From Escherichia coli (GTDB lineage Bacteria; Pseudomonadota; Gammaproteobacteria; Enterobacterales; Enterobacteriaceae): 64,000 nucleotides of DNA. Made by a program: the position numbers and the translations under genes. The DNA lies in NCBI RefSeq assembly GCF_009931435.1, contig NZ_CP043414.1. One strand, 5' to 3'. How positions within the stretch are numbered: the stretch's first letter is position 1; every line of letters begins with the position of its first letter. A model generated the notes under the pieces. The model made no database searches. It was not told where the DNA came from and was given only the letters and a program-made list of their open reading frames with translations. Below, piece after piece: positions 1 to 17,006 of this stretch.

Positions 1-798
<798 letters not shown>

Positions 799-937
799 AA
801 CGTGAGGAAATACCTGGATTTTTCCTGGTTATTTTGCCGCAGGTCAGCGTATCGTGAACATCTTTTCCAGTGTTCAGTATGGTGCCTTGCACGGTAATTA
901 TGTCACTGGTTATTAACCAATTTTTCTTGGGGGATAA

Positions 938-2077
938 ATGAGCGCGGGAAGCCCAAAATTCACCGTTCGCCGCATTGCGGCTTTGTCACTGGTTTCGCTA
1001 TGGCTGGCAGGCTGTTCTGACACTTCAAATCCACCGGCACCGGTCAGCTCCGTTAATGGCAATGCGTCTGCAAACACCAATTCTGGTATGTTGATTACGC
1101 CGCCGCCGAAAATGGGGACGACGTCTACAACGCAGCAACCGCAAATTCAGCCGGTACAGCAGCCACAAATTCAATCTGCACAACAACCGCAAATCCAGCC
1201 GGTGCAGCCAGTTGCTCAGCCGCCGGTACAGATGGAAAACGGACGCATCGTCTACAACCGTCAGTATGGGAACATTCCGAAAGGCAGTTATAGCGGCAGT
1301 ACATACACCGTGAAAAAAGGCGACACACTTTTCTATATCGCCTGGATTACTGGCAATGATTTCCGTGACCTTGCTCAGCGCAACAATATTCAGGCACCAT
1401 ACGCGCTGAATGTAGGTCAGACCTTACAGGTGGGTAATGCTTCCGGTACGCCAATCACTGGTGGAAATGCCATTACCCAGGCCGATGCAGCAGAGCAAGG
1501 AGTTGTGATCAAGCCTGCACAAAATTCCACCGTTGCTGTTGCGTCGCAACCGACAATTACGTATTCTGAGTCTTCGGGTGAACAGAGTGCTAACAAAATG
1601 TTGCCGAACAACAAGCCAACTGGGACCACGGTCACAGCGCCTGTAACGGTACCAACAGCAAGCACAACCGAGCCGACTGTCAGCAGTACATCAACCAGTG
1701 CGCCTATCTCCACCTGGCGCTGGCCGACTGAGGGCAAAGTGATCGAAACCTTTGGTGCTTCTGAGGGGGGTAACAAGGGGATTGATATCGCAGGCAGCAA
1801 AGGACAGGCAATTATCGCGACCGCAGATGGCCGCGTTGTTTATGCCGGTAACGCGCTGCGCGGCTACGGTAATCTGATTATCATCAAACATAATGATGAT
1901 TACCTGAGTGCCTACGCCCATAACGACACAATGCTGGTCCGGGAACAACAAGAAGTGAAGGCGGGGCAAAAAATAGCGACTATGGGTAGCACCGGAACCA
2001 GTTCAACACGCTTGCATTTTGAAATTCGTTACAAGGGGAAATCCGTAAACCCGCTGCGCTATTTGCCGCAGCGATAA
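938..2077 (+). CDS. nlpD: murein hydrolase activator lipoprotein NlpD (LysM + M23/LytM domains)
   Basis: 379-aa ORF with lipoprotein signal (LAGCS), Q/P-rich repeat region, C-terminal M23 peptidase-like domain; lies upstream of rpoS. Confidence 0.95.
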
Positions 2078-2139
2078 ATCGGCGGAACCAGGCTTTTGCT
2101 TGAATGTTCCGTCAAGGGATCACGGGTAGGAGCCACCTT

Positions 2140-3132
2140 ATGAGTCAGAATACGCTGAAAGTTCATGATTTAAATGAAGATGCGGAATTTGATGAGAACG
2201 GAGTTGAGGTTTTTGACGAAAAGGCCTTAGTAGAAGAGGAACCCAGTGATAACGATTTGGCCTAAGAGGAACTGTTATCGCAAGGGGCCACACAGCGTGT
2301 GTTGGACGCGACTCAGCTTTACCTTGGTGAGATTGGTTATTCACCACTGTTAACGGCCGAAGAAGAAGTTTATTTTGCGCGTCGCGCACTGCGAGGAGAT
2401 GTTGCCTCCCGCCGCCGGATGATCGAGAGTAACTTGCGTCTGGTGGTAAAAATTGCCCGCCGTTATGGCAATCGTGGTCTGGCTTTGCTGGATCTTATCG
2501 AAGAGGGCAACCTGGGGCTGATCCGCGCGGTAGAGAAGTTTGACCCGGAACGTGGTTTCCGCTTCTCAACATACGCAACCTGGTGGATTCGCCAGACGAT
2601 CGAACGGGCGATTATGAACCAAACCCGTACTATTCGTTTGCCGATTCACATCGTAAAGGAGCTGAACGTTTACCTGCGAACCGCACGTGAGTTGTCCCAT
2701 AAGCTGGACCACGAACCAAGTGCGGAAGAGATCGCAGAGCAGCTGGATAAGCCAGTTGATGACGTCAGCCGTATGCTTCGTCTTAACGAGCGCATTACCT
2801 CGGTAGACACCCCGCTGGGTGGAGATTCCGAAAAAGCGTTGCTGGACATCCTGGCCGATGAAAAAGAAAACGGCCCGGAAGATACCACGCAAGATGACGA
2901 TATGAAACAAAGCATCGTCAAATGGCTGTTCGAACTGAACGCCAAACAGCGTGAAGTGCTGGCACGTCGATTCGGTTTGCTGGGGTACGAAGCGGCAACA
3001 CTGGAAGATGTAGGTCGTGAAATTGGCCTCACCCGTGAACGTGTTCGCCAGATTCAGGTTGAAGGCCTGCGCCGTTTGCGCGAAATCCTGCAAACGCAGG
3101 GGCTGAATATCGAAGCGCTGTTCCGCGAATAA
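2140..3132 (+). pseudogene. rpoS: RNA polymerase sigma factor RpoS reading frame interrupted by an in-frame ochre codon (TAA at 2263-2265, codon 42); an in-frame GTG at 2299 opens a 277-codon ORF covering sigma regions 1.2-4
   Basis: ATG 2140 translates [41 protein letters not shown] then TAA; the ORF track only opens at 2299 in the same frame; the rest matches RpoS (…[15 protein letters not shown]…). Confidence 0.85.
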
Positions 3133-3148
3133 GTAAGCATCTGTCAGA

Positions 3149-3181
3149 AAGGCCAGTCTCTTATGAGGCTGGCCTTTTTCT
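3149..3181 (+). terminator. rho-independent terminator downstream of rpoS
   Basis: Inverted repeat aaaggccagtctc/ttatgaggctggccttt followed by a T-run. Confidence 0.7.
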
Positions 3182-3252
3182 TTTGTATGGGGAGTTGGTG
3201 TGTTTCGTCGCCTGGATAAGACACGTCAGCGTCCCATCCGGCAATCAACATC

Positions 3253-3660
3253 CTATTTGCTCATCATCTTGCGCACCAGCTGCATAAACAGCTCCTGCTC
3301 TTCTCCACTCAAACGCCCCAAAAATTCCTCATCCACACTGTCGCCAATCGGTATCGCCGCAGCAAGTACCTTTTCTCCTTCGGCAGTCAGCCAGACAAAG
3401 CGTCGCCGCTTATCAGCGGTGTCATGTTCACGTCTGACTAAGCCACGATTTTCCATTCTTGCCAACATTTCTGCCAGCGTTGCTTTGGTGCTGACGGCTG
3501 CTTCCATCAGTGCCACCTGTTCGATACCAGGTTTATCAGCAATGGCGCGCATCACCGCGTACTGTGGTTTGGTCAGGTCAGGTAACTCGTGCTGCCAGCG
3601 GGCCGTATGCTGCTGAAAAAGCTGTCGTAACTGATGGAACGCTTTATTTCGTAACGCCAT
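3253..3660 (-). CDS. hosA: MarR/SlyA-family transcriptional regulator (HosA-like)
   Basis: 135-aa ORF with winged-helix MarR-like sequence; sits divergently upstream of the UbiX/UbiD decarboxylase genes, the arrangement described for hosA in pathogenic E. coli. Confidence 0.65.
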   Translation of the reverse strand: MALRNKAFHQLRQLFQQHTARWQHELPDLTKPQYAVMRAIADKPGIEQVALMEAAVSTKATLAEMLARMENRGLVRREHDTADKRRRFVWLTAEGEKVLAAAIPIGDSVDEEFLGRLSGEEQELFMQLVRKMMSK

Positions 3661-3806
3661 GTAAACTCCGGGCTAATTCTCTGTCGCTATCATAGCGGTT
3701 TTTCAGTGACGAAGAAGATGTTGTTACTTTTCAATCCTTGCCGCTGTGGAAATGAAGGAGTATGTTAATAATAACGTTCGTATACGAACAATTAAGAGAG
3801 TAAGCA

Positions 3807-4400
3807 ATGAAACTGATCGTCGGGATGACAGGGGCTACCGGTGCGCCTCTTGGTGTGGCATTACTGCAAGCGTTGCGCGAAATGCCGGATGTCGAGACTC
3901 ATCTGGTGATGTCGAAGTGGGCGAAAACCACTATTGAACTGGAAACGCCTTACAGCGCTCGCGATGTTGCCGCCCTCGCTGACTTCAGCCATAACCCGGC
4001 GGATCAGGCTGCGACCATCTCTTCCGGCTCCTTTCGTACCGACGGCATGATCGTTATTCCATGCAGTATGAAAACGCTCGCCGGTATCCGCGCTGGTTAC
4101 GCCGATGGTCTCGTAGGGCGCGCGGCGGACGTCGTGCTCAAAGAAGGCCGCAAACTGGTGCTGGTGCCGCGTGAAATGCCGCTTAGCACCATCCATCTCG
4201 AAAATATGCTCGCACTTTCGCGCATGGGCGTGGCGATGGTGCCGCCGATGCCTGCCTTTTATAACCATCCCGAAACGGTAGATGACATTGTCCACCACGT
4301 GGTAGCCCGCGTGCTGGATCAATTTGGCCTCGAACATCCTCACGCCAGGCGCTGGCAAGGGTTGCCGCAGGCCCGGAATTTTTCTCAGGAGAATGAATAA
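3807..4400 (+). CDS. ecdB: UbiX/Pad1-family flavin prenyltransferase (decarboxylase subunit B)
   Basis: 197-aa ORF MKLIVGMTGATGAPLGV..., flavoprotein fold typical of UbiX/Pad1; stop overlaps the next start (ATGA), indicating an operon. Confidence 0.75.
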   Translation: MKLIVGMTGATGAPLGVALLQALREMPDVETHLVMSKWAKTTIELETPYSARDVAALADFSHNPADQAATISSGSFRTDGMIVIPCSMKTLAGIRAGYADGLVGRAADVVLKEGRKLVLVPREMPLSTIHLENMLALSRMGVAMVPPMPAFYNHPETVDDIVHHVVARVLDQFGLEHPHARRWQGLPQARNFSQENE

Positions 4401-5827
4401 TGGCATTTGATGATTTACGCAGCTTCTTACAGGCGCTTGATGACCACGGCCAGTTACTGAAAATCAGCGAAGAGGTGAACGCGGAACCGGATCTGGCAGC
4501 CGCTGCCAACGCCACCGGGCGTATCGGCGACGGCGCGCCCGCGCTGTGGTTTGATAATATTCGCGGCTTTATCGATGCCCGCGTTGCAATGAACACCATC
4601 GGTTCCTGGCAGAACCACGCAATTTCTCTCGGTCTGCCGCCAAACACCCCGGTTAAAAAACAGATTGATGAGTTTATCCGCCGCTGGGATAACTTCCCGA
4701 TAGCCCCGGAGCGCCGTGCGAATCCTGCCTGGGCGCAGAACACCGTCGATGGCGACGAGATCAATTTGTTCAATATCCTGCCGCTGTTTCGTTTAAACGA
4801 TGGCGATGGCGGTTTCTATCTCGACAAAGCGTGCGTGGTTTCCCGCGATCCGCTCGATCCGGATAACTTCGGCAAGCAGAACGTCGGCATCTATCGCATG
4901 GAAGTGAAGGGTAAGCGTAAGCTCGGCCTGCAACCGGTGCCGATGCACGATATCGCCCTGCATCTGCATAAAGCGGAAGAACGTGGTGAAGATTTGCCAA
5001 TTGCCATCACGCTGGGTAACGATCCGATCATCACCCTGATGGGCGCCACCCCGCTGAAATATGATCAATCGGAGTACGAAATGGCGGGCGCGCTACGCGA
5101 AAGCCCGTACCCGATCGCCACCGCCCCGCTGACCGGTTTTGATGTGCCGTGGGGTTCAGAAGTGATCCTCGAAGGGGTTATCGAAAGCCGCAAACGTGAA
5201 ATCGAAGGGCCGTTCGGTGAGTTTACCGGGCACTACTCCGGTGGGCGCAACATGACCGTAGTGCGCATCGATAAAGTCTCTTACCGCACCAAACCGATTT
5301 TTGAATCGCTCTATCTCGGCATGCCGTGGACCGAAATCGACTACCTGATGGGGCCTGCCACCTGCGTGCCGCTTTACCAGCAGTTGAAAGCCGAGTTCCC
5401 GGAAGTGCAGGCGGTGAACGCTATGTACACCCACGGCCTGCTGGCGATTATCTCCACCAAAAAACGCTATGGCGGCTTTGCCCGCGCAGTGGGCCTGCGT
5501 GCGATGACCACGCCGCACGGTCTGGGTTATGTGAAGATGGTGATTATGGTCGATGAAGACGTTGACCCGTTCAACCTGCCGCAGGTGATGTGGGCGCTCT
5601 CTTCGAAAGTGAACCCGGCAGGGGATCTGGTGCAGTTGCCGAATATGTCAGTACTGGAACTCGACCCTGGCTCAAGCCCGGCGGGGATCACCGACAAGCT
5701 GATTATCGACGCCACTACGCCTGTCGCCCCGGACAACCGTGGTCACTACAGCCAGCCGGTGGTGGACTTACCGGAAACCAAAGCCTGGGCTGAAAAACTG
5801 ACCGCTATGCTGGCCGCACGTAAATAA
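4400..5827 (+). CDS. ecdC: UbiD-family reversible hydroxyarylic-acid decarboxylase (subunit C)
   Basis: 475-aa ORF; UbiD-like length and sequence; directly follows the UbiX-like gene. Confidence 0.75.
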   Translation: MAFDDLRSFLQALDDHGQLLKISEEVNAEPDLAAAANATGRIGDGAPALWFDNIRGFIDARVAMNTIGSWQNHAISLGLPPNTPVKKQIDEFIRRWDNFPIAPERRANPAWAQNTVDGDEINLFNILPLFRLNDGDGGFYLDKACVVSRDPLDPDNFGKQNVGIYRMEVKGKRKLGLQPVPMHDIALHLHKAEERGEDLPIAITLGNDPIITLMGATPLKYDQSEYEMAGALRESPYPIATAPLTGFDVPWGSEVILEGVIESRKREIEGPFGEFTGHYSGGRNMTVVRIDKVSYRTKPIFESLYLGMPWTEIDYLMGPATCVPLYQQLKAEFPEVQAVNAMYTHGLLAIISTKKRYGGFARAVGLRAMTTPHGLGYVKMVIMVDEDVDPFNLPQVMWALSSKVNPAGDLVQLPNMSVLELDPGSSPAGITDKLIIDATTPVAPDNRGHYSQPVVDLPETKAWAEKLTAMLAARK

Positions 5828-5837
5828 GGAGAACAAG

Positions 5838-6074
5838 ATGATTTGTCCACGTTGTGCCGATGAACAGATTGAAGTGATGGCGAAATCGCCGGTAAAAGAT
5901 GTCTGGACGGTCTACCAGTGCCAGCATTGCCTTTATACATGGCGCGATACTGAACCGCTACGCCGCACCAGCCGCGAACATTATCCCGAAGCCTTCCGCA
6001 TGACGCAGAAAGATATTGATGACGCGCCGATGGTGCCGAGCATCCCGCCGCTGCTGGCGGAAGGTAAGCGCTAA
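5838..6074 (+). CDS. ecdD: small zinc-ribbon subunit D of hydroxyarylic-acid decarboxylase
   Basis: 78-aa ORF with CxxC…CxHC motif (MICPRCADEQ…YQCQHCLY), typical of KpdD/YclD-type subunits. Confidence 0.65.
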   Translation: MICPRCADEQIEVMAKSPVKDVWTVYQCQHCLYTWRDTEPLRRTSREHYPEAFRMTQKDIDDAPMVPSIPPLLAEGKR

Positions 6075-6075
6075 A

Positions 6076-6105
6076 TAAAAGGTCCGATGCCCATCGGACC
6101 TTTTT
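6076..6105. terminator. bidirectional rho-independent terminator between convergent ecdD and ygbN
   Basis: A-run, perfect hairpin ggtccgatg/catcggacc, T-run. Confidence 0.7.
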
Positions 6106-6112
6106 ATTAAGG

Positions 6113-7477
6113 TCAAATTACCGCCCATACGCACCAGGTAATTAAGAATCCGGTAAAACCGAGAATGGTCGTTAACACTGTCCAGGTTTTCAGACCGTCT
6201 GCTACCGACAACCCCAGATATTTGGTCACAATCCAGAACCCTGAGTCATTAATATGTGACGCGCCAAGCCCACCAAAGCAGGCTGCCAGCGTCACCAATA
6301 CGCACTGAATCGGATTCAATCCCATCACCGCTTCTGAGAGTAACCCGCCGGTTGTCAGGATTGCTACGGTTGCTGACCCCTGCGATGCACGCAGCGCCAG
6401 TGAAATAATAAATGCGGCTGGTAACAGAGGCAGGTCAATCATTTGTAGCATGTTGGCAAGGGCTTTGCCGACGCCCGATTCCACCAGCACTTTGCCAAAT
6501 ACCCCTCCAGCACCAGTAACCAAAATCACTACCGCCGCAGTGGGAAGGGCTGAGCCCATAATGTCGCTGGTGTGTTGTAAGCTCCAGCCGCGACGTAAAG
6601 CCAATAACCAGAATGCCAGCACCAGCGCAATCATTAGAGCTACCATTGGTGAGCCGATCAGCTGTAGCGTACCAAGCAGGGGATGCGAAGGCGGCATCAG
6701 TGTTGCGGAAACCGTACCCGCCATGATAATCGCGATAGGAATAACAATTAGCGAGGTGACCAGCGCGACGCCCGGTGGATTTATTTTATCGCTTAATTTT
6801 GTCGCGCCTTCCTCACTGGCCGGAGCCAGTTGCATCTGTTCCAGTACTTCCACCGACATCGCATATTGGCGCTTATTGATTATTTTCGCTGCAAAGTAGC
6901 CAACAATCCCTACGGGAATAGAAATCGCAATACCGATGATGGTTAGCCAGCCGATGTCTGCGTGGAGTAACCCCGCTGCGGCGACAGGGCCTGGATGCGG
7001 CGGTACCGCCACATGAACAGTTAGCATGATTCCAGCGACAGGCAGGCCAAATTTGAGTGGCGATATTTTGGCAACCTTGGCAAAACCGTAAATGATTGGC
7101 GCAAGAATAATAAAGCCGACATCAAAGAAGACGGGAATACCGAGGAAGAACGCTGCCAGAGTCAGCGCAGCGATAGTTCGTTTGTCACCTAACTTGCGAC
7201 TGAAATAATTAGCCAGTGACTCTGCACCACCAGAGTGTTCGATCATACGCCCCAGCATAGCGCCCAGACCAATAATAATAGTGACGGAACCAAGCACACC
7301 GCCCATCCCGGCGATCATCACTTTACCCACTTCGCCCGCCGGTATACCCGCCGCAAGTGCGACTAACAGGCTGACGAGGAGCAGAGCAACGAATGGTTGT
7401 ACCTTTGCCTTGATGACCAGCAGCAACAGCATGATTACGCCAGTTAACGCAATGCATAACAATGTAATTGTGGACAT
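6113..7477 (-). CDS. ygbN: GntP-family permease (putative L-threonate/D-erythronate transporter)
   Basis: 454-aa polytopic membrane ORF; GntP-like; conserved position next to ygbM. Confidence 0.85.
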   Translation of the reverse strand: MSTITLLCIALTGVIMLLLLVIKAKVQPFVALLLVSLLVALAAGIPAGEVGKVMIAGMGGVLGSVTIIIGLGAMLGRMIEHSGGAESLANYFSRKLGDKRTIAALTLAAFFLGIPVFFDVGFIILAPIIYGFAKVAKISPLKFGLPVAGIMLTVHVAVPPHPGPVAAAGLLHADIGWLTIIGIAISIPVGIVGYFAAKIINKRQYAMSVEVLEQMQLAPASEEGATKLSDKINPPGVALVTSLIVIPIAIIMAGTVSATLMPPSHPLLGTLQLIGSPMVALMIALVLAFWLLALRRGWSLQHTSDIMGSALPTAAVVILVTGAGGVFGKVLVESGVGKALANMLQMIDLPLLPAAFIISLALRASQGSATVAILTTGGLLSEAVMGLNPIQCVLVTLAACFGGLGASHINDSGFWIVTKYLGLSVADGLKTWTVLTTILGFTGFLITWCVWAVI

Positions 7478-7565
7478 GGGAAACCCTGTCTGAAAGTTAT
7501 AGTTAACCTACCCCATCCGTAGATGGGGGGATGTATGGGTACGTTGTAATTAGGGATTTAACGGA

Positions 7566-8342
7566 TTAGCGCCAGGCGTCAAACCAGCCAAGCCCTTCTT
7601 CGGTGAGGCCTCGAGGTTTATATTCACAACCGATCCAGCCCTGATATCCCACCTCATCGAACAGGCGGAACAGCCACGGATAGTTGATTTCTCCATCGTC
7701 CGGTTCATGTCGATCAGGTAGTCCGGCAATTTGTACGTGCGCATATTTCCCGGCGTAGTCGCGGATTAAATGCGTCAGGTTGCCATCTACTTTTTGCGCA
7801 TGGAAAGTATCTAGTTGAATAAACACGTTATCTCGCGCAACCTCTTCAACAATAGCCAGTGCCTGATACTGGCTGGAGAAGAGATAATGAGGCTTAACGC
7901 CGGGGCTGAGTGCTTCAACCAATATTCGCTTGCCGTGTGGCGCAAAGCGGTCGGCAGCGTAGCGGAGATTATCAATAAATACTGCCCGGTACCGTTCAGC
8001 ATCTTCGCCAGCGGGCACGACGCCTGCCATCACATGGACTTGTTCACAATTGAGCGCCAATGCATATTCCAGTGCCAGGTCGATGTCTGCGCGTGCTTCG
8101 TGCTCACGTCCAGGAAGGGCGGATAATCCCCATTCTCCCGCATTAATATCTCCGGGAGCGGTATTGAACAGCGCCAGTGTCAGATGGTTTTGCACCAGTT
8201 GCTTTTGGATTTGCAGGGGGGAGTAGTCATAGGGAAACAGAAATTCCACGGCATCAAACCCGGCTTTTCGCGCTGCGGCGAAGCGTTCAATAAAAGGCAC
8301 TTCGGTGAACATCATGGATAAATTAGCTGCAAAACGAGGCAT
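7566..8342 (-). CDS. ygbM: 2-oxo-tetronate isomerase (hydroxypyruvate-isomerase-like TIM barrel)
   Basis: 258-aa ORF, Hyi-family-like; ygbJKLM cluster. Confidence 0.85.
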
Positions 8343-8346
8343 TGCA

Positions 8347-8985
8347 TTAACTCCTTAATTCCGCAATTTCACCTGCGGTCAGATAACGGATCGGGCGGTC
8401 ACCGAGAATAAAAATCAGCTTTGCCGTTTCCTCCAGCTCTTCCATATTATTGGCGGCTTCTTGCAGGCTTTCACCGCAAACCACTGGGCCATGATTTGCC
8501 AGTAAAAAAGCCTGATTGTCTGCTGCCAGTTCCGCCAGATCCTGTGCGATGCGTTTATCGCCCGGTCGGTAATAAGGCACCAGCGGGATATTTCCCATCC
8601 GCATCACCACGTATGGTGTGAACGGACGAATAACGTTGCTGCTGTCCAGCCCTTGCAGGCAGGAAAGCGCCGTCGACCACGTACTGTGCAAATGCACCAC
8701 CGCTTTACAGCGCGGATTGTTGCGATACAGCGCCAGATGAAAGAGCACCTCTTTCGAGGGTTTGTCACCACTTAACCATTCGCCATCCGCGGTGACTTTG
8801 GAAAGCCGCTGCGGATCGAGATTGCCCAGGCATGAACCTGTCGGTGTCGCCAGTAAATTCCCGTCAGGTAAAAGCAGCGACAGATTGCCAGCCGAACCGG
8901 TTGCATAGCCGCGCTGAAAGAATGAACTGGCAATCCGCGTCATCTCCTCTCGCAAAGACTGCTCTACTTTTGCGAAATCGCTCAT
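8347..8985 (-). CDS. ygbL: class II aldolase/adducin-family 3-oxo-tetronate 4-phosphate decarboxylase
   Basis: 212-aa ORF; class II aldolase-like; cluster context. Confidence 0.85.
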
Positions 8986-10244
8986 GATAAAAACTCTCTT
9001 TGGGCTCGTGAAAAAAAGGCTTCATCACCGAAGTTGCCAGATTTAAGGGCGAGTGAGACAGGCTTATCCAGTGCGTTTACCCACGGCACGCCGGGGGAAA
9101 TGGTTGGGCCAATATGAAACCCTTTTATTCCCAGGCTCTGTGTGACTACGCCGGAGGTCTCACCGCCTGCGACAATAAAGCGTGTCACGCCTTCCGCTGC
9201 TAACCGCGCCGCTAGTTGAGAAAACAGTGTTTCTACTGCCTGACTGGCTTTTTGTGCACCGTATTGCTGTTGAATTGCTGCCAGTGCGTCAGTGCTGGCG
9301 GTGGCAAAAACCAGTGGAGCAAGTACACTTTCCTGGCCCAGAACCCACTCTGCCAGCTCGTGTGCATAAGCGGCCAGAGTTTCGGTTGAGAGGCAGCGTG
9401 CCACATCAACTTCACGGGCTGGTGCAATTTGACGGTAATGTGCTACCTGGCGGTTGGTCATTTGAGAGCATGAACCGGAGAGCACTACGCCGCGCCCAGC
9501 GAGCGGATGCCCTGCTTTGCGAGCCTGGTTACCGTTTTCTTGCGCCCACTGCCGGGCAAGGCCAATCGCCAGACCAGAACCGCCCGTTACCAGTGGGGCA
9601 TCGCGCAAGGCTTCTCCCTGAATTTCCAGATGGTGTTCGGTCAGCGCATCAAGCACCGCGTAGCGGTAGCCCTCTTGCTGTAAGCGAGCCAGCTCTTGAC
9701 GAACGGCATCCACACCTTGTTCGAAAATATGTGCCGAAACGACGCCGCAGCGCCCTGTGGATTGCGCTTCAACCAGACGGGGAAGATAGCTGTCGGTCAT
9801 GGGATTTACCGGGTGATGGCGCATCCCGGATTCGGCCAGCAGTTGATTCATTACGAACAAATACCCCTGATAAACCGTACGTCCGTTGACCGGCAGGGCC
9901 GGAGAGAAGACCGTAAACGGCGTGTCGAGAGCATCCATTAATGCATCGGTAACCGGGCCGATATTACCTTTCGCCGTACTGTCGAAAGTAGAGCAGTATT
10001 TGAAATAGATCTGTTTGCAACCTTGCTGTTGCAACCAGCTCAGAGCCGCCAGCGATTGCTGTGTGGCTTCAACCACCGGACAGGAACGCGTTTTCAGGCT
10101 GATCACCAGTGCGTCGATTGCTTCCGGCATTTTACCTGTTGGAACACCGTTAATTTGTACCGTTGGTAGACCGTTTTCCACCAGAAAACTGGCGATATCC
10201 GTCGCGCCGGTAAAATCATCAGCGATAACGCCAATCTTGATCAT
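8982..10244 (-). CDS. ygbK: four-carbon acid sugar kinase (3-oxo-tetronate kinase)
   Basis: 420-aa ORF; start overlaps ygbL stop; cluster context. Confidence 0.85.
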   Translation of the reverse strand: MIKIGVIADDFTGATDIASFLVENGLPTVQINGVPTGKMPEAIDALVISLKTRSCPVVEATQQSLAALSWLQQQGCKQIYFKYCSTFDSTAKGNIGPVTDALMDALDTPFTVFSPALPVNGRTVYQGYLFVMNQLLAESGMRHHPVNPMTDSYLPRLVEAQSTGRCGVVSAHIFEQGVDAVRQELARLQQEGYRYAVLDALTEHHLEIQGEALRDAPLVTGGSGLAIGLARQWAQENGNQARKAGHPLAGRGVVLSGSCSQMTNRQVAHYRQIAPAREVDVARCLSTETLAAYAHELAEWVLGQESVLAPLVFATASTDALAAIQQQYGAQKASQAVETLFSQLAARLAAEGVTRFIVAGGETSGVVTQSLGIKGFHIGPTISPGVPWVNALDKPVSLALKSGNFGDEAFFSRAQREFLS

Positions 10245-11149
10245 GATTTTGCTCCCGGTAGAGTGATGCCAGAGAAAATCTTGATAACTGCGCTATCGTC
10301 TTCTTTCCCGTAACCCGCGTTACTGGCGCTGGTGAACATATTCAATGCTGTTGAGGCCAATGGCAGCGGGAAGTGCAGGGCTTTGGCTGTATCGGCAACC
10401 AGACCAAGATCCTTAACAAAAATATCGACGGCTGAATGCGGGGTGTAATCGCCATCCACCACATGACGCATCCGGTTTTCGAACATCCAGGAATTTCCGG
10501 CGGCATTGGTCACGACGTCATACATCACATCCAGCGGGATCCCCGCACGGGCTGCAAGTGCCATCGCTTCGGCTCCGGCAGCAATATGTACGCCCGCTAA
10601 CAACTGGTGAATAATTTTTACGGTCGAACCTAGTCCCGGTTCTGCACCTATGCGATAAACTTTTCCGGCAACGGCTTCCAGCACGGGTGCCAGTCGTTCA
10701 AAGGCAATATCGCTACCGGAGGCCATGACAGTCATTTCACCGTTAGCGGCTTTTACTGCACCACCAGAAACTGGCGCATCCAGCATTTCCAGATCGAATC
10801 CAGCCAGAGCGGTAGCAATTTCTTGCGCATCAGCACTAGCGATAGTGGAAGAAACCATTACTGCCGTACCGGGTTTCAGATGTTGTGCAACGCCTGTTTC
10901 ACCAAACAGCACCTGTTTAACCTGGGCCGCATTGACCACCAGCACCAGCAGAGCGTCCAGTTTTTCGGCAAACGTCGCGGCGTTATCAGAAACCCCGCAA
11001 GCACCTGCCTCTTTCAACGTAGCGCAGGCATTGCTGTTTAGGTCTGCGCCCCAGGTAGAAAGACCTGCGCGGACACATGACAGTGCTGCTCCCATTCCCA
11101 TTGACCCTAAGCCAACGATACCGACATGAAACTCAGATCCCGTTTTCAT
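10241..11149 (-). CDS. ygbJ: NAD-dependent L-threonate dehydrogenase (3-hydroxyisobutyrate dehydrogenase family)
   Basis: 302-aa ORF with N-terminal Rossmann motif GIVGLGSMGMGAA. Confidence 0.85.
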   Translation of the reverse strand: MKTGSEFHVGIVGLGSMGMGAALSCVRAGLSTWGADLNSNACATLKEAGACGVSDNAATFAEKLDALLVLVVNAAQVKQVLFGETGVAQHLKPGTAVMVSSTIASADAQEIATALAGFDLEMLDAPVSGGAVKAANGEMTVMASGSDIAFERLAPVLEAVAGKVYRIGAEPGLGSTVKIIHQLLAGVHIAAGAEAMALAARAGIPLDVMYDVVTNAAGNSWMFENRMRHVVDGDYTPHSAVDIFVKDLGLVADTAKALHFPLPLASTALNMFTSASNAGYGKEDDSAVIKIFSGITLPGAKS

Positions 11150-11314
11150 CTGCTCTCCTTGTTAATTTAAGTGATATTTTGTTTGATAATGTGAATATAA
11201 GCGCTGGAAGATAACGATATGGTGAGCTGATTCACAAAAATTAACATTGTGTGTTATTTTATGTGAACTAAGCGTTAGTTGCGCCGCGCACGTTTCGCAG
11301 GCAAATAGCGTAGA

Positions 11315-12112
11315 ATGTCAGCAGGACAAAGGAAGGAGCAAAAGTTGATACCCGTAGAGCGTCGCCAAATCATCCTTGAGATGGTAGCTGAAAAAGGCAT
11401 TGTCAGTATTGCTGAACTAACGGACAGAATGAATGTGTCACATATGACCATTCGTCGGGATTTACAAAAACTGGAGCAGCAGGGAGCCGTTGTGCTGGTG
11501 TCCGGAGGCGTCCAGTCTCCGGGACGCGTGGCGCATGAACCTTCTCATCAGGTAAAAACTGCGCTGGCAATGACGCAAAAAGCGGCTATTGGCAAGCTGG
11601 CGGCAAGTCTTGTTCAGCCGGGAAGTTGTATCTATCTGGATGCGGGAACGACCACGCTAGCGATAGCACAGCATCTGATTCACATGGAGTCACTGACTGT
11701 GGTCACAAACGATTTCGTTATTGCGGACTACTTGCTCGACAACAGTAATTGCACAATTATTCACACTGGCGGTGCAGTGTGTCGGGAAAACCGTTCCTGT
11801 GTCGGGGAAGCCGCTGCGACCATGCTGCGCAGCCTGATGATTGATCAGGCTTTTATTTCTGCATCGTCATGGAGTGTGCGGGGGATTTCTACGCCAGCGG
11901 AAGATAAAGTCACGGTGAAACGGGCGATTGCCAGTGCCAGCCGCCAGCGAGTTTTGGTCTGTGATGCGACGAAATATGGTCAGGTGGCGACATGGCTGGC
12001 GTTACCATTAAGCGAGTTTGATCAGATTATTACAGACGACGGTTTACCGGAGAGTGCCAGTCGCGCGCTGGCGAAGCAGGATCTCTCTTTGCTGGTAGCG
12101 AAAAATGAATAA
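11315..12112 (+). CDS. ygbI: DeoR-family transcriptional regulator (start may be the TTG at 11345)
   Basis: N-terminal HTH (SIAELTDRMNVSHMTIRRDL) and DeoR-type sugar-binding C-terminus; divergent from ygbJ. Confidence 0.85.
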   Translation: MSAGQRKEQKLIPVERRQIILEMVAEKGIVSIAELTDRMNVSHMTIRRDLQKLEQQGAVVLVSGGVQSPGRVAHEPSHQVKTALAMTQKAAIGKLAASLVQPGSCIYLDAGTTTLAIAQHLIHMESLTVVTNDFVIADYLLDNSNCTIIHTGGAVCRENRSCVGEAAATMLRSLMIDQAFISASSWSVRGISTPAEDKVTVKRAIASASRQRVLVCDATKYGQVATWLALPLSEFDQIITDDGLPESASRALAKQDLSLLVAKNE

Positions 12113-12162
12113 TGGCCTGCAATAACACCGGGTTACTCATGCTTCACAGAAGAAGCATGAGA

Positions 12163-12819
12163 CTACTTTATTTTATAAAATGACAGCCGCCCGCTTTTCG
12201 GCGATCCGGTATCAATATAAATCTGGTTTGCGAACGTCTGGATGTTATCAAACATCATATGTCCGAAGATAAAGCAGTCGGCGCCGTTTATTTCCTGTAA
12301 CTCGCCTTTGAGCGATTTCAGTACGCGATCAACAGGCCAGAGTAATTCTCTCTCCGCTATTTCTTTGCCAAACTGATATTCAGCACCAGGATAATCAGCA
12401 TGTGCAATGACATATTTTATAATGTCGTTGGTAATTTCAATAATATGCGGAAGGTGATGGAATTTCAGCAACAGATCTATTGCCTCTTGTTGCTCTGAAT
12501 CATTTAAATCGAAAAACCAGTCACCACCGCTGGCAAGCCACATATTTCCATCGCCAGTTTCGAATGCCTCAAGCGCCATCGCTTCATGGTTGCCTTTAAC
12601 GGAGATAAACCAGGGCTGGTTTAACAGGCGTAGCACGTTAAGACTCTCCGGCCCACGATCAATATTATCGCCGACAGAAATAAGTAAGTCGGTTTCAGGA
12701 CAAAAAGATAATTGGTGCAGGCGGGATTGCAATAATTGATAATCTCCATGAATGTCACCTACCACCCAGATATGGCGATAATGAGTGGTTTCAATTTTAC
12801 GATAACGAATATCTGGCAT
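12163..12819 (-). CDS. pphB: serine/threonine protein phosphatase 2
   Basis: Metallophosphatase motifs GDIHGD, GDNIDRG, GNHE; start taken at MPDIRYRK, not the longer ORF-track start. Confidence 0.85.
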   Translation of the reverse strand: MPDIRYRKIETTHYRHIWVVGDIHGDYQLLQSRLHQLSFCPETDLLISVGDNIDRGPESLNVLRLLNQPWFISVKGNHEAMALEAFETGDGNMWLASGGDWFFDLNDSEQQEAIDLLLKFHHLPHIIEITNDIIKYVIAHADYPGAEYQFGKEIAERELLWPVDRVLKSLKGELQEINGADCFIFGHMMFDNIQTFANQIYIDTGSPKSGRLSFYKIK

Positions 12820-12841
12820 TGATCGCGCTCCGTAAAAAGAA

Positions 12842-13696
12842 TTATTCCGGCTTATGAAACAGAATGGTGTTAATCTCGACATCAGTGATTGCGCCAGCTG
12901 CTTCTGCTTTATGTAACCAGTATAGCGCTTTGTCTTTATCCACACCGTTCTCATCAATGCCCCAGGCGTAAATGCGGCCTAAGGATATTTGGGCATGAGG
13001 TAAATCTTGTGCGGCAGCTTTTTCAAACCAGTATTTAGCCTGTTTAATATCAGCGGGTACACCATCGCCCGTTAAAAAGAGCGTACCATAATTATACTGA
13101 CCAATTTTGTCGCCTTTTTCTGCGGCAAACTTAAGATATGTCGCAGCCTGGAGATAATTCTTTTCCTCGGCTGCGAGGAGCCCTAAATTAGCATGTGCAA
13201 TGGGGTTTCCCTTTTGCGCCGCTTTAACGAGCCAGGATTTTGCTTTATCGATATCATGGAACTTCTCTGGACCAAACTGATAGATATTGGCACAGTTTAT
13301 CTGTGCCTGAAGATTCCCCTGTCTGGCTGATTTCTCATACCAGTGAATGGCATTCTGGTAATCCGGCGGTGTGTCTTCATCTCCCTGATGATATAAAAGC
13401 CCGACATAAAATTGCGCAATGTCATCTCCCTGACTGGCTGCCAGATTAAACCAGTAAAATGCTTTATCGCGGTTTTTAACCCCCGTTACCCCTTCCTGGT
13501 AAACAATTCCCAATCCTTTTTGCGCAGATTTATCGCCGCCTTGTGCCCTTGCGATGATATTTTTCAGGTTTTCCTGTTTGTTTTTAGAATAACGTTGTTC
13601 AGCCTGGATAAGATCATCAAGCGAGGGTTCTTTGGCACAATAACCTGTTAGAGGAAAATGCAAAATTAGTAGAGTAAATAAAATTAACTTTTTCAT
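12842..13696 (-). CDS. secreted Sel1-like repeat (SLR/TPR-like) protein
   Basis: Signal peptide MKKLILFTLLILHFPLTGYCA followed by about seven repeats of the Sel1 pattern (A-x-Y-x-L-G-x-x-Y-x-x-G…D-x-x-K-A-x-x-W…A-A-x-Q-G); no K-12 gene lies between mutS and pphB in my recollection. Confidence 0.75.
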   Translation of the reverse strand: MKKLILFTLLILHFPLTGYCAKEPSLDDLIQAEQRYSKNKQENLKNIIARAQGGDKSAQKGLGIVYQEGVTGVKNRDKAFYWFNLAASQGDDIAQFYVGLLYHQGDEDTPPDYQNAIHWYEKSARQGNLQAQINCANIYQFGPEKFHDIDKAKSWLVKAAQKGNPIAHANLGLLAAEEKNYLQAATYLKFAAEKGDKIGQYNYGTLFLTGDGVPADIKQAKYWFEKAAAQDLPHAQISLGRIYAWGIDENGVDKDKALYWLHKAEAAGAITDVEINTILFHKPE

Positions 13697-13770
13697 ACAT
13701 TCCATGAATTAATTGTTGAGTCCTGATTTTAATTATACTCCATCTGTTATTGAGCCAATAATAATTAATA

Positions 13771-13797
13771 ATCCCCGATGGGAAGGCCATCGGGGAT
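13771..13797 (-). terminator. hairpin downstream of mutS (terminator/attenuator)
   Basis: Perfect 11-bp stem atccccgatgg/ccatcggggat followed on the minus strand by an AT-rich tract. Confidence 0.5.
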
Positions 13798-13804
13798 TAT
13801 GCCA

Positions 13805-16366
13805 TTACAGCAAACTCTTCAAGCGGTAAATCCACTCCAGCGCCTGACGCGGGGTAAGTGAATCCGGGTCGAGATTTTCCAGTGCTTCGACCGCTGGCGA
13901 GGTTTCTTCCGGTACTGACAGCAAAGACATTTGCGTACCATCCACTTGCGTAGCGGCGGCGTTCGGCGAAATGCTTTCCAGTTCACGCAGTTTTTGCCGT
14001 GCGCGCTTAATCACCTCTTTTGGCACGCCCGCCAGAGCAGCAACCGCCAGGCCGTAGCTTTTGCTCGCCGCGCCATCCTGCACACTGTGCATAAAGGCAA
14101 TGGTATCGCCGTGCTCCAGCGCATCAAGATGCACGTTGGCGACGCCTTCCATTTTCTCCGGCAGTTGAGTCAGTTCAAAGTAGTGGGTAGCAAACAACGT
14201 CAACGCTTTAATCTTATTCGCCAGATTTTCAGCGCACGCCCATGCCAGCGACAGACCATCGTAAGTGGACGTTCCGCGCCCAATCTCATCCATCAACACC
14301 AGGCTGTACTCCGTGGCGTTATGCAGAATATTAGCGGTTTCGGTCATCTCCACCATAAAGGTTGAACGCCCGGATGCCAGATCGTCAGCCGCGCCCACAC
14401 GGGTAAAGATACGGTCAATCGGGCCAATCTCGACTTTTTGCGCCGGTACGTAGCTGCCGATATAGGCCATCAGCGCAATCAGTGCAGTCTGGCGCATATA
14501 GGTACTTTTACCGCCCATGTTCGGACCGGTGATGATCAACATGCGACGCTGCGGCGACAGGTTCAGCGGGTTAGCGATAAACGGCTCATTCAGTACCTGT
14601 TCAACCACCGGATGGCGACCTTCGGTAATGCGAATGCCCGGTTTATCAATGAAGGTCGGGCAGGTGTAGTTCAGGGTATAGGCCCGTTCCGCCAGGTTCA
14701 CCAGTACGTCGAGTTCTGCCAGTGCGCTCGCGCTCTGTTGCAACGCCTCCAGATGCGGCAACAGCAGGTCGAACAACTCTTCATAAAGCTGTTTTTCGAG
14801 TGCCAGTGCTTTACCTTTCGAGGTGAGTACTTTGTCTTCATACTCTTTTAGCTCTGGAATAATGTAGCGTTCGGCGTTTTTCAGCGTCTGACGACGCATA
14901 TAGTTGATGGGTGCCAGATGGCTTTGTCCACGGCTGATCTGAATGTAATAACCATGCACCGCGTTAAAGCCGACTTTCAGCGTGTCCAGGCCGGTACGTT
15001 CACGCTCGCGAACTTCCAGACGCTCCAGATAATCTGTCGCGCCGTCAGCCAGCGCTCGCCACTCATCCAGCTCTTCGTTATAGCCTGATGCGATAACACC
15101 ACCGTCGCGTACCAGCACCGGCGGTGTGTCGATGATTGCTCGCTCCAGCAGATCGCGCAGCTCGGCAAACTCGCCCATTTTCTCACGCAGCGCCTGTACC
15201 GGTGCACTATCGACACTTTCTAACTGCGCGCGTAGTTCTGGCAGTTGCTGGAAAGCGTGACGCATACGGGCCAGATCGCGTGGGCGAGCAGTCCGTAAAG
15301 CCAGACGTGCCAGAATACGTTCCAGGTCGCCGACCTGACGCAGTACCGGCTGCAGCTCAGCGGTGAAATCCTGCAATGCGCCAATAGTTTGCTGGCGCTC
15401 AAGCAACACGCGGGTATCGCGCACTGGCATATGCAGCCAGCGTTTCAGCATTCGACTCCCCATCGGCGTTACAGTGCAGTCGAGCACGGAAGCCAGCGTG
15501 TTTTCCGCACCGCCCGCCAGGTTCTGGGTAATTTCCAGGTTACGACGCGTCGCGGCATCCATAATGATGCTGTCCTGCTCACGTTCCATAGTGATAGAAC
15601 GAATATGCGGCAGTGTCGTACGTTGCGTATCTTTCGCATACTGCAACAGACAACCGGCGGCACAAAGTCCGCGCGGCGCGTTCTCGACGCCAAAACCGAC
15701 CAGATCGCGAGTGCCAAATTGTAGATTCAACTGCTGGCGCGCGGTGTCGATTTCAAACTCCCACAGCGGACGACGGCGCAAGCCGCGACGACCTTCAATC
15801 AGCGACATTTCAGCAAAATCTTCTGCATACAGCAGTTCCGCCGGATTAGTGCGTTGCAGTTCTGCCGCCATCGTTTCGCGGTCAGCCGGTTCACTCAGGC
15901 GAAAACGACCAGAACTGATATCCAGCGTCGCATAGCCGAATCCTTTGCTGTCCTGCCAGATAGCAGCCAGCAGGTTGTCCTGACGTTCCTGCAATAGCGC
16001 TTCATCGCTGATGGTGCCCGGCGTAACGATACGCACAACTTTGCGCTCGACCGGCCCTTTGCTGGTCGCCGGATCGCCAATCTGTTCACAAATAGCAACG
16101 GACTCGCCCTGATTCACCAGTTTGGCGAGATAGTTTTCCACCGCATGGTAGGGAATCCCCGCCATCGGGATCGGCTCTCCCGCTGAAGCGCCGCGTTTGG
16201 TCAGTGAAATATCCAGCAGTTGTGACGCACGTTTTGCGTCGTCATAAAACAGTTCGTAAAAGTCACCCATCCGGTAGAACAGCAGGATCTCGGGATGCTG
16301 GGCTTTCAGCTTGAGATACTGCTGCATCATTGGCGTATGGGCGTCAAAATTTTCTATTGCACTCAT
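13805..16366 (-). CDS. mutS: DNA mismatch repair protein MutS
   Basis: 853-aa ORF with Walker [10 protein letters not shown] and full MutS architecture. Confidence 0.97.
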
Positions 16367-16652
16367 GGGGTTATGTCCGGTTCCCTGATATTAAATGGGG
16401 TGTGATGGTTTTTATTTTCGTTGTAATCACATAAGGCGCACATGATACCGGAGTTAATCATTTCAGGGGAAGAAGCGAACGGCGAGTTCTTGATGGTGAT
16501 TCCGGGAAAGATGCTGTTTTGCAGCTTTTGCGTGATGCTTATGAAGCAAGTACGCAAAATTGTATCAGTTGGCGAACCCTTCTTCTTCAGAGCCATAGTC
16601 CCCTTTCAAATTAAGTTGTAATATAAATACATCTTAATGAGGTGGAGGCAGC

Positions 16653-17006
16653 ATGTCCGGCAAGCGTATCTCTCGTGAAAAATTGACGATTAAAAAAATG
16701 ATCGATCTTTATCAAGCGAAATGCCCGCAGGCGTCAGCGGAGCCGGCGCATTACGAGGCATTGTTTGCTTATGCGCAAAAACGGCTGGATAAATGTGTGT
16801 TCGGCGAAGACAAACCCGCCTGTAAGCAGTGTCCGGTGCACTGTTACCAGTCTGCAAAGCGTGAAGAGATGAAACAGATTATGCGTTGGGCCGGGCCGCG
16901 CATGCTGTGGCGTCATCCGATCCTAACCGTACGCCATCTCATTGATGACAAGCGTCCGGTGCCGGAGTTGCCAGAAAAATATCGCCCGAAAAAACCTCGT
17001 GAATAG
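16653..17006 (+). CDS. ygbA: YgbA (nitrosative-stress-induced protein)
   Basis: 117-aa ORF between mutS and fhlA, the conserved position. Confidence 0.8.
   Translation: MSGKRISREKLTIKKMIDLYQAKCPQASAEPAHYEALFAYAQKRLDKCVFGEDKPACKQCPVHCYQSAKREEMKQIMRWAGPRMLWRHPILTVRHLIDDKRPVPELPEKYRPKKPRE

Follow-up and report, generated by a model that had tools for sequence, protein, structure and literature searches.

Between mutS and pphB, E. coli K-12 has a spacer of 105 bp, whereas 985 bp separate the two genes in the E. coli genome analysed here, of which one stretch of 64,000 nucleotides (hereafter, the window) was studied. This locus raises the questions of what occupies the gap, whether it was inserted there or has long been resident, and what its product might do. 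The original prediction held that the K-12 spacer is short, which is correct, and that in the window it is replaced by a gap filled with an 855-bp gene for a signal-peptide protein that consists almost wholly of Sel1 repeats, inserted into an AT-rich segment of the mutS-rpoS interval. The roles in host interaction or scaffolding that it mentioned are possibilities at the level of the family. The site indeed lies within the known mutS-rpoS variable region, and the gene and its family were confirmed; the insertion has become doubtful. Our literature searches (mutS-rpoS, Sel1-like repeats, pphB and the protein accessions) found no publication on the gene.

The gene and its neighbours

The gap (12820-13804, 985 bp) extends exactly from the pphB start codon (12819) to the mutS stop codon (13805) and contains only one open reading frame, the Sel1-like repeat (SLR) gene, at 12842-13696 (855 bp, 284 aa). 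mutS, the SLR gene and pphB are all on the minus strand. The longest mechanical reading frame, 12842-13705, would start with MECMKK; this start was rejected and the conserved ATG at 13696 adopted, because the upstream in-frame ATG reads AAG in Citrobacter and every SLR orthologue has MK or MR as its N-terminus. RefSeq annotates a matching 855-bp coding sequence in related genomes, under the product name 'tetratricopeptide repeat protein', and the gene is intact in the window and in the four complete genomes inspected. The assignment is based on the Pfam match, the PDB match and the AlphaFold model described below, together with a dN/dS of 0.08-0.2 against orthologues from three genera. Because it is conserved in three genera with such ratios, the gene is real and not a chance reading frame, and it is under purifying selection.

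On the 5' side, mutS (13805-16366, minus strand; 853 aa), an open reading frame for which RefSeq has mutS at the same place in relatives, is the conserved anchor of the locus; all genera examined have it next to the SLR gene on the 5' side. On the 3' side, pphB (12163-12819, minus strand; 218 aa) encodes a Ser/Thr phosphatase 2 (Pfam Metallophos, E=6.5e-17), annotated as pphB by RefSeq in relatives. A 264-aa pphB frame with a TTG start, overlapping the SLR gene, was discarded as a mechanical extension, the annotated and conserved start being the ATG at 12819. The next gene after pphB, ygbI, is on the plus strand.

mutS is followed by a hairpin resembling an intrinsic terminator (13768-13800, minus strand), which has a 14-bp stem, a 5-nt loop and then a T-rich tail and was detected by the terminator scan and as inverted repeat I3. 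Hairpins with different stem sequences are kept 3' of mutS in K-12, 042, Citrobacter and Pseudocitrobacter. On the minus strand, the AT-rich 108-nt spacer upstream of the SLR gene contains TATAAT (13732-13737), a -10-like hexamer located 35 nt 5' of the start codon, and a possible -35 element, TTATTG (13756-13761), at a spacing of 18 nt. The hexamer belongs to a block, G-GTA(T/A)AAT-AA, that does not vary among the six orthologous intergenic regions compared, which come from three genera. From this conservation, we infer that a sigma-70-type promoter for the SLR gene may lie just after the mutS terminator. The consensus promoter scan reported no promoter at TATAAT 13732-13737, and it missed this site because the -35 element is poor.

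The stop codon of the SLR gene and the start codon of pphB are separated by 22 nt (12820-12841, minus strand), with GGAG 8 nt before the ATG. The terminator scan detected no terminator between the two genes, and 042 and Pseudocitrobacter have a similar spacing of 22-24 nt. Thus spaced, the two are probably carried on one transcript where pphB sits 22 nt downstream, and the SLR gene would be transcribed with pphB from its own promoter after the mutS terminator. This link is not obligatory, because Citrobacter and an isolate labelled E. fergusonii keep the SLR gene without pphB; most E. coli, conversely, have pphB without the SLR gene. In Citrobacter, a convergent gene follows in place of pphB, and it gave no significant match in Pfam. 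A search of positions 11000-17000 against Rfam gave no match.

The AT-rich segment of the original prediction stands for the SLR gene (43.0% GC) and its upstream spacer (36.1%), compared with mutS (55.3%) and the window (52.7%); in every host, the gene has 37-43% GC versus 55-58% for mutS. However, low GC also extends over pphB, both in the window (42.6%) and in K-12 (42.3%). Since pphB, which K-12 also carries, is equally AT-rich, composition does not single out an insert.

Distribution, age and recombination

The window allele was present in 11 of 5,426 complete E. coli genomes, at 99.4-99.6% identity. A second allele at the same site, 68% identical to that of the window in nucleotides and 54% in amino acids, was present in 182 of the 5,426. 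This 042-type allele (WP_001223109.1) is carried by strain 042 and 181 other complete genomes, ST69 included, and no two of its 182 copies fall below 99% identity. The gene is rare and, as predicted, absent from K-12-like genomes. In comparisons of 24 kb and of 6 kb of neighbouring genes, the window is about 95.4% identical to ordinary E. coli, and it is 98.4-99.2% identical to only 18 genomes, with a sharp gap below; this agrees with a deep divergent lineage under the E. coli label, probably cryptic clade I. All 11 carriers of the window allele fall among these 18 genomes, of which the remaining seven are without the gene; N96 and 2013C-4282, the two of the seven that were inspected, have a K-12-like short spacer. 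One member of the protein cluster comes from 'Escherichia sp. MOD1-EC5189'. A -1 frameshift in an A4 run at codons 152-153 splits the protein into fragments of 170 and 87 aa, and the 170-aa fragment occurs on 54 contigs, so that some strains, at least, can do without the gene.

Outside E. coli, an SLR orthologue is located directly 3' of mutS in several Citrobacter genomes, in Pseudocitrobacter and in the E. fergusonii-labelled isolate, although a scan of species representatives (about 100,000 species) matched only C. werkmanii and a Pseudocitrobacter MAG. Amino acid identity to the window protein is 64-68% in Citrobacter and 54-57% in Pseudocitrobacter. The E. fergusonii isolate is 95.3% identical to the window in mutS, 96.3% in the spacer and 95.3% in the SLR gene, after which it retains a degenerate remnant of about 100 nt of the pphB 5' end; the order mutS-SLR-pphB therefore predates the rearrangement in this isolate. 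Between the window allele and Citrobacter, dS is 1.7-3.4 for the SLR gene and 1.0-1.3 for mutS, i.e., the gene has diverged from its Citrobacter orthologues at least as deeply as mutS. The two E. coli SLR alleles are saturated at synonymous sites (pS 0.775).

These data bear on the proposed insertion. A recent insertion would mean that the SLR gene entered a K-12-like 105-bp spacer in the ancestor of the window lineage. The short spacer of K-12, of most E. coli and of the inspected non-carriers of that lineage agrees with this, as do the AT-richness of the gene and the small number of species representatives that carry it. However, the marks expected of a mobile-element insertion or genomic island were not found at mutS-pphB: there is no integrase, IS or transposase among the reading frames between the two genes and no target-site duplication or flanking direct or terminal repeat beyond chance around the SLR gene, and no relative exceeded 60% identity in the phage and plasmid collections, where phages and true plasmids gave at most 38%. 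Furthermore, the position after mutS is maintained in three genera, the divergence is deep, and, compared with the E. fergusonii isolate, mutS, spacer and gene show a uniform level of about 95%. Within the window lineage, haplotypes with the gene and those lacking it differ by 14-22% in roughly the first 150 nt of pphB, far more than the genome background of about 5%, and both haplotypes must thus be old. For these reasons, we regard a recent insertion as unlikely.

The junction itself was compared by global and local alignments with shuffle controls, in which the 105-nt spacer of K-12 and N96 was set against the window, 042 and Citrobacter flanks. Significance was reached by the mutS terminator hairpin alone (z=3.4), and the K-12 spacer contains no significant remnant of the SLR gene or its flanks beyond the terminator. 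A segment with TATAAT and a ribosome-binding site, seemingly shared by the K-12 spacer when judged by eye, failed the shuffle-controlled alignment and was rejected. As the hairpin is the only part of the K-12 spacer with recognisable homology, the junction does not discriminate between insertion and deletion, and the direction of gain or loss is inferred from synteny and divergence alone. On this basis, the gene is probably an old resident that was lost many times and re-imported by homologous recombination, a history that fits better than insertion. Spread of a foreign gene by recombination, instead of vertical descent, would also agree with the low GC and the patchy occurrence.

Recombination at this site could be followed in the 042-type allele. 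Between 042 and Pseudocitrobacter, dS is 0.92 in mutS codons 1-780 but 0.26 in the 70-odd codons after them; the SLR gene has 0.22 and pphB 0.35. At the mutS 3' end, nucleotide identity climbs from 80-88% to 95-99%. From these sequence comparisons, an exchange of the 042-type allele between genera, with Pseudocitrobacter as the other party and a breakpoint inside mutS, is demonstrable, and the pattern points to a separate, more recent import. The breakpoint agrees with the mosaicism of mutS already reported in a 2014 survey of the mutS-rpoS region (PMC4209514), which does not mention pphB/prpB.

The pphB gene of the window is likewise mosaic, with a 5' part of RMDEC465 type (100%), a K-12-like middle (91-98% to K-12, 78-86% to RMDEC465) and then RMDEC465-type sequence again. 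In addition, the window joins the SLR gene with ygbI-N and kpdBCD-marR, a combination present in no complete genome; of the six contig contexts listed for the identical protein, none had it, and all were arranged mutS-SLR-pphB-kpdDCB. Judged by this mosaic structure, the window itself is a recombinant. The locus provides a concrete case in which mutS-anchored recombination carried a neighbouring gene between genera. It also adds the mutS-pphB junction to the mapped part of the mutS-rpoS hotspot, and the SLR alleles are clean lineage markers, the window type for the clade-I-like lineage and the 042 type for its 182 genomes.

Fold, export and possible function of the protein

The SLR protein matched the Pfam Sel1 profile (PF08238) in five stretches (E=9.7e-43; 143.5 bits, where the cutoff is 30.7), i.e., its tandem Sel1 repeats score above the gathering threshold. 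With this match and the absence of the gene from K-12-like genomes, neither of the two findings that would have spoken against the original prediction was obtained. Six helix pairs (about aa 56-269; 12890-13531, minus strand) were recognized by inspection and in the AlphaFold model, whose helix boundaries delimit them, and the DNA repeat family D1 coincides with the repeats. The model (pLDDT 88.8, pTM 0.80) is all-helical, with 15 helices arranged as two N-terminal helices, the six pairs and a C-terminal cap, and this predicted structure is a right-handed alpha/alpha superhelix with SLR packing. When it was compared with the PDB by Foldseek, the top 14 matches were all solved SLR proteins. The best was EsiB (4bwr; TM 0.75, rmsd 2.4 over 242 columns); further matches were LceB, five Oxalobacter formigenes SLR proteins, LpnE and HcpC, and PA5086-5088 were far lower (TM about 0.5). 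A sequence search of the PDB also gave EsiB/c5321 (4bwr) as the best match (E=1.5e-53).

NCBIfam equivalogs all remained below their cutoffs, namely MerG (76.7 vs 350), MotX (52.4 vs 330), AlgK (33.6 vs 700) and ExoR (28.8 vs 450). PADLOC assigned the protein to no defence system; it gave a 21.5-bit match to the repeat region of PtuA, in which no stretch passed alone. A profile search of 1.84 billion representatives yielded 199,301 matches to the SLR profile at E of 0.001 or less, mostly giant multi-repeat proteins. Because the Citrobacter protein P0007 was the sole full-length collinear family member among the best 150 of these matches, no wider family was found there. Within the very large known SLR family, the protein represents a subfamily that is small and narrowly distributed.

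The N-terminus consists of MKK, a hydrophobic core of 11 residues (LILFTLLILHF) and PLTGYC, followed by AKEPS after the presumed cleavage site. The predicted Sec signal peptide, MKKLILFTLLILHFPLTGYC, cleaved before AKEPS, corresponds to codons 1-20 (13637-13696, minus strand). Despite sequence divergence, 11 of 11 orthologues have a basic n-region, a hydrophobic core (10-12 residues; mean Kyte-Doolittle value over 10 residues 2.5-3.2 in each) and a cleavage motif of small residues. In the model, residues 1-18 are unstructured, with pLDDT below 50. This pattern, which agrees with the signal peptide of the original prediction, strongly suggests Sec export. A lipoprotein was considered and rejected; there is no lipobox, Tyr is at position -1, and the orthologues do not all keep the N-terminal Cys. 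C135 is the only cysteine of the mature protein.

Residues that are invariant and lie outside the general SLR consensus are concentrated in the first helices of repeats 3-6, where 7-10 of 13 positions are invariant, compared with 2-3 in repeats 1-2 and 4-6 in the second helices. They form the motifs Q130-A-Q-x-N-C-A-x-I-Y-Q-F-G-P in repeat 3, P165-I-A-H-A-N-L-G in repeat 4, Q200-Y-N-Y-x-T-L-F in repeat 5 and A235-Q-I-x-L-G-x-x-Y-A in repeat 6, and include N134, Y139, H168, N170, Y201 and Y203. In SLR solenoids, the first helices make up the concave, ligand-facing side (PMC3851747). Because the invariant residues cluster in these concave-face helices, the concave groove of the C-terminal two-thirds is the likely binding site, where repeats 3-6 may bind a ligand.

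The protein is very probably an exported, non-enzymatic SLR solenoid and, as such, a protein-binding module. We propose that the product is exported by Sec to the periplasm as a soluble protein of about 264 aa, that its six-repeat Sel1-like alpha-solenoid, which has no enzymatic motif, would act as a protein-binding adaptor, and that the partner would be held in the conserved groove of repeats 3-6. The gene, AT-rich and common to Escherichia, Citrobacter and Pseudocitrobacter, would have resided 3' of mutS for a long time and have been lost in most E. coli, and it would move by homologous recombination anchored in mutS and pphB. We lean towards this explanation as a whole, in which an exported adaptor, co-transcription with pphB and an old resident are combined. 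For its functional part, a periplasmic adaptor with a bacterial partner, the chances seem about even.

Three other functions were considered. The protein may be a host-interaction factor of the EsiB type, released or surface-exposed, that binds a host protein and aids gut colonisation in those lineages that have kept it; EsiB itself binds secretory IgA and dampens neutrophil activation, and PMC3735183 describes its function. EsiB is the best match by both sequence and fold, the Pseudocitrobacter orthologue was automatically named 'Secretory immunoglobulin A-binding protein EsiB' by one source, and most carriers were isolated from the gut of humans or animals. However, identity to EsiB of about 32% is the level given by the shared repeat consensus, the Oxalobacter and Legionella SLR proteins match about equally well, the six repeats in 284 aa stand against 11 in about 470 aa, and there is no sign of passage past the periplasm, so that we consider such a role improbable. 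Still less can be said for a periplasmic regulator that would bind the periplasmic domain of an envelope sensor, with PphB acting on the same pathway, by analogy with the rhizobia, in which ExoR acts on ExoS. Missiakas and Raina reportedly found in 1997 that PphB affects Cpx/htrA signalling. The two genes share a strand and, in three haplotypes from two genera, are separated by 22-24 nt that contain no terminator; both are equally low in GC, and there is a weak NCBIfam match to ExoR (E=7e-7). This match scores far under its cutoff, however, and each gene occurs without the other, as in Citrobacter, the E. fergusonii isolate and most E. coli; we therefore hold a function with PphB to be very unlikely.

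[quoted passage not shown] The SLR protein resembles PA5086/5087/5088 in size, export signal and SLR fold, and immunity genes typically show such a pattern of presence or absence with highly divergent alleles. SLR immunity proteins are also reported in Enterobacteriaceae, namely Klebsiella Sel1E (PMC7108748). However, the structural similarity is weak (17-18% identity at the above TM), and the dN/dS of 0.1-0.2 gives no diversifying signal. The neighbours of the SLR gene are mutS, pphB and ygbI rather than an effector or vgrG cluster, and no adjoining effector, VgrG or T6SS gene is present in the window, 042, Pseudocitrobacter and most Citrobacter loci. T6SS genes were seen about 5 kb from the SLR gene in one Citrobacter locus only. 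Apart from these functions, the remaining probability falls to a gene that is dispensable or decaying, for which the -1 frameshift speaks to some extent.

Returning to the proposed old resident, a broader and distinctly unlikely extension of it is that an ancient polymorphism with three states (two saturated SLR alleles and a null) exists in the mutS 3' flank, with the gene as a passenger of the known horizontal replacements of mutS, including a transfer between phylogroup-D E. coli and Pseudocitrobacter with its breakpoint in mutS. A further step would be that the exported SLR protein works with PphB, which is cytoplasmic, as an envelope-signalling pair spanning two compartments, and that this pair has been dismantled in most E. 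coli. The practical value of the locus is modest, and it would matter more if binding of a host factor, as in EsiB, or envelope signalling with PphB proved true. In itself, the protein is an ordinary additional exported member of a huge known SLR family, encoded in a known recombination hotspot.

Comparison with known systems

Among exported SLR proteins, PA5086/PA5087/PA5088 are similar in length (about 260-270 aa), at a TM of about 0.5 and 17-18% identity; unlike these immunity proteins, the SLR protein of the window has no adjacent effector or T6SS gene. Helicobacter HcpB and HcpC are likewise exported SLR solenoids of similar size (HcpC, 1ouv, TM 0.67). The Hcp repeats are cross-linked by paired cysteines (PMC3851747), and a cysteine pair per repeat is lacking here. 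Because it has a single mature cysteine, the window protein is not an Hcp-type disulfide SLR protein. EsiB/c5321 of uropathogenic E. coli CFT073 (4bwr) shares the Sel1-like alpha/alpha solenoid, the absence of Hcp disulfide pairs and the accessory status in E. coli. However, it has 11 repeats, about 470 aa and another chromosomal locus, and the invariant groove motifs belong to the SLR protein and are not EsiB features. The SLR protein, at 32% identity, aligns to several parts of EsiB rather than collinearly over 11 units; thus it is not an EsiB orthologue.

The closest counterparts are the orthologues at the same locus. Those of Citrobacter (e.g., C. werkmanii and C. enshiensis; 'MULTISPECIES: tetratricopeptide repeat protein [Citrobacter]') also have 284 aa, follow mutS and are preceded by the TATAAT block, but have the convergent gene downstream instead of pphB. 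The 042-type allele encodes 287 aa and, as noted, is only 54% identical to the window protein; nevertheless, it and the Pseudocitrobacter allele share with the window the position between mutS and pphB, the six repeats, the invariant motifs and the export signal.

Integrity and genomic context of the Sel1-like-repeat gene

At 3200-16400 of the window, the Sel1-like-repeat (SLR) gene located between mutS and pphB, the ygbI-ygbN genes and the kpdBCD/marR block are found together in this strain. Among the complete genomes searched, none was found in which the pphB-ygbI junction of the window co-occurs with the SLR gene. For the identical SLR protein, all six of the contig contexts shown have the order mutS-SLR-pphB-kpdDCB without the ygb genes, and the SLR gene is absent from the members of the window's lineage that have the ygb genes.

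The SLR gene is intact in the inspected complete genomes. A -1 frameshift variant of the window allele, with its site at the A4 run in the region of 13237-13240 (codons 152-153), yields fragments of 170 aa (54 contigs) and 87 aa (30 contigs). The frameshift may reflect either an assembly error or a lineage in which the gene is truly a pseudogene.

pphB and rpoS of the window

Judged by its identity pattern, pphB of the window (12163-12819) is a mosaic. The 5' part of about 150 nt is completely identical to the type of the relative RMDEC465, whereas the middle part of about 240 nt shows 91-98% identity to K-12 and 78-86% to the RMDEC465 type, and the 3' end is again of the lineage type. In the ORF list, pphB was extended through 12820-12957 to a TTG at 12957, producing a 116-nt overlap with the end of the SLR gene; this start was rejected as a mechanical artefact of the list in favor of the conserved ATG start at 12819.

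In rpoS (2140-3132, plus strand), codon 42 is a premature TAA (2263-2265). The codon is GAA in the related strain N96, and this is the sole mismatch between the two rpoS sequences in the 71 nt compared. Because of this stop codon, rpoS was listed only as a remainder of 277 aa, and thus the strain is probably RpoS-null or attenuated.

Island genes at mutS and exchange between genera

In the isolate labelled E. fergusonii (L017) and in one Pseudocitrobacter locus (L008), a divergent gene for a tyrosine integrase (485 aa) lies immediately upstream of mutS. The two integrases share about 80% nucleotide identity; in L017 (region 1570-5178) the integrase gene is adjoined by the Thoeris-like genes ThsA_Macro and ThsB_TIR, and in L008 (region 739-3169) by an HNH gene. 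From this gene content, the mutS flank opposite the SLR gene is an island site in both genomes. Downstream of the intact SLR gene of L017, pphB is reduced to some 100 nt of its 5' end (8856-8960 of L017), with ATA in place of the start codon and an in-frame stop codon, and beyond this remnant are unrelated sugar-kinase and Lar genes.

Between E. coli 042 and Pseudocitrobacter (L008 and L011), the terminal part of mutS, together with the SLR gene, pphB and kpdD, shows 87-99% nucleotide identity (dS 0.22-0.35), whereas the body of mutS shows only 80-88% (dS 0.92). This far greater similarity from the end of mutS onward indicates an exchange between the two genera with a breakpoint within mutS.
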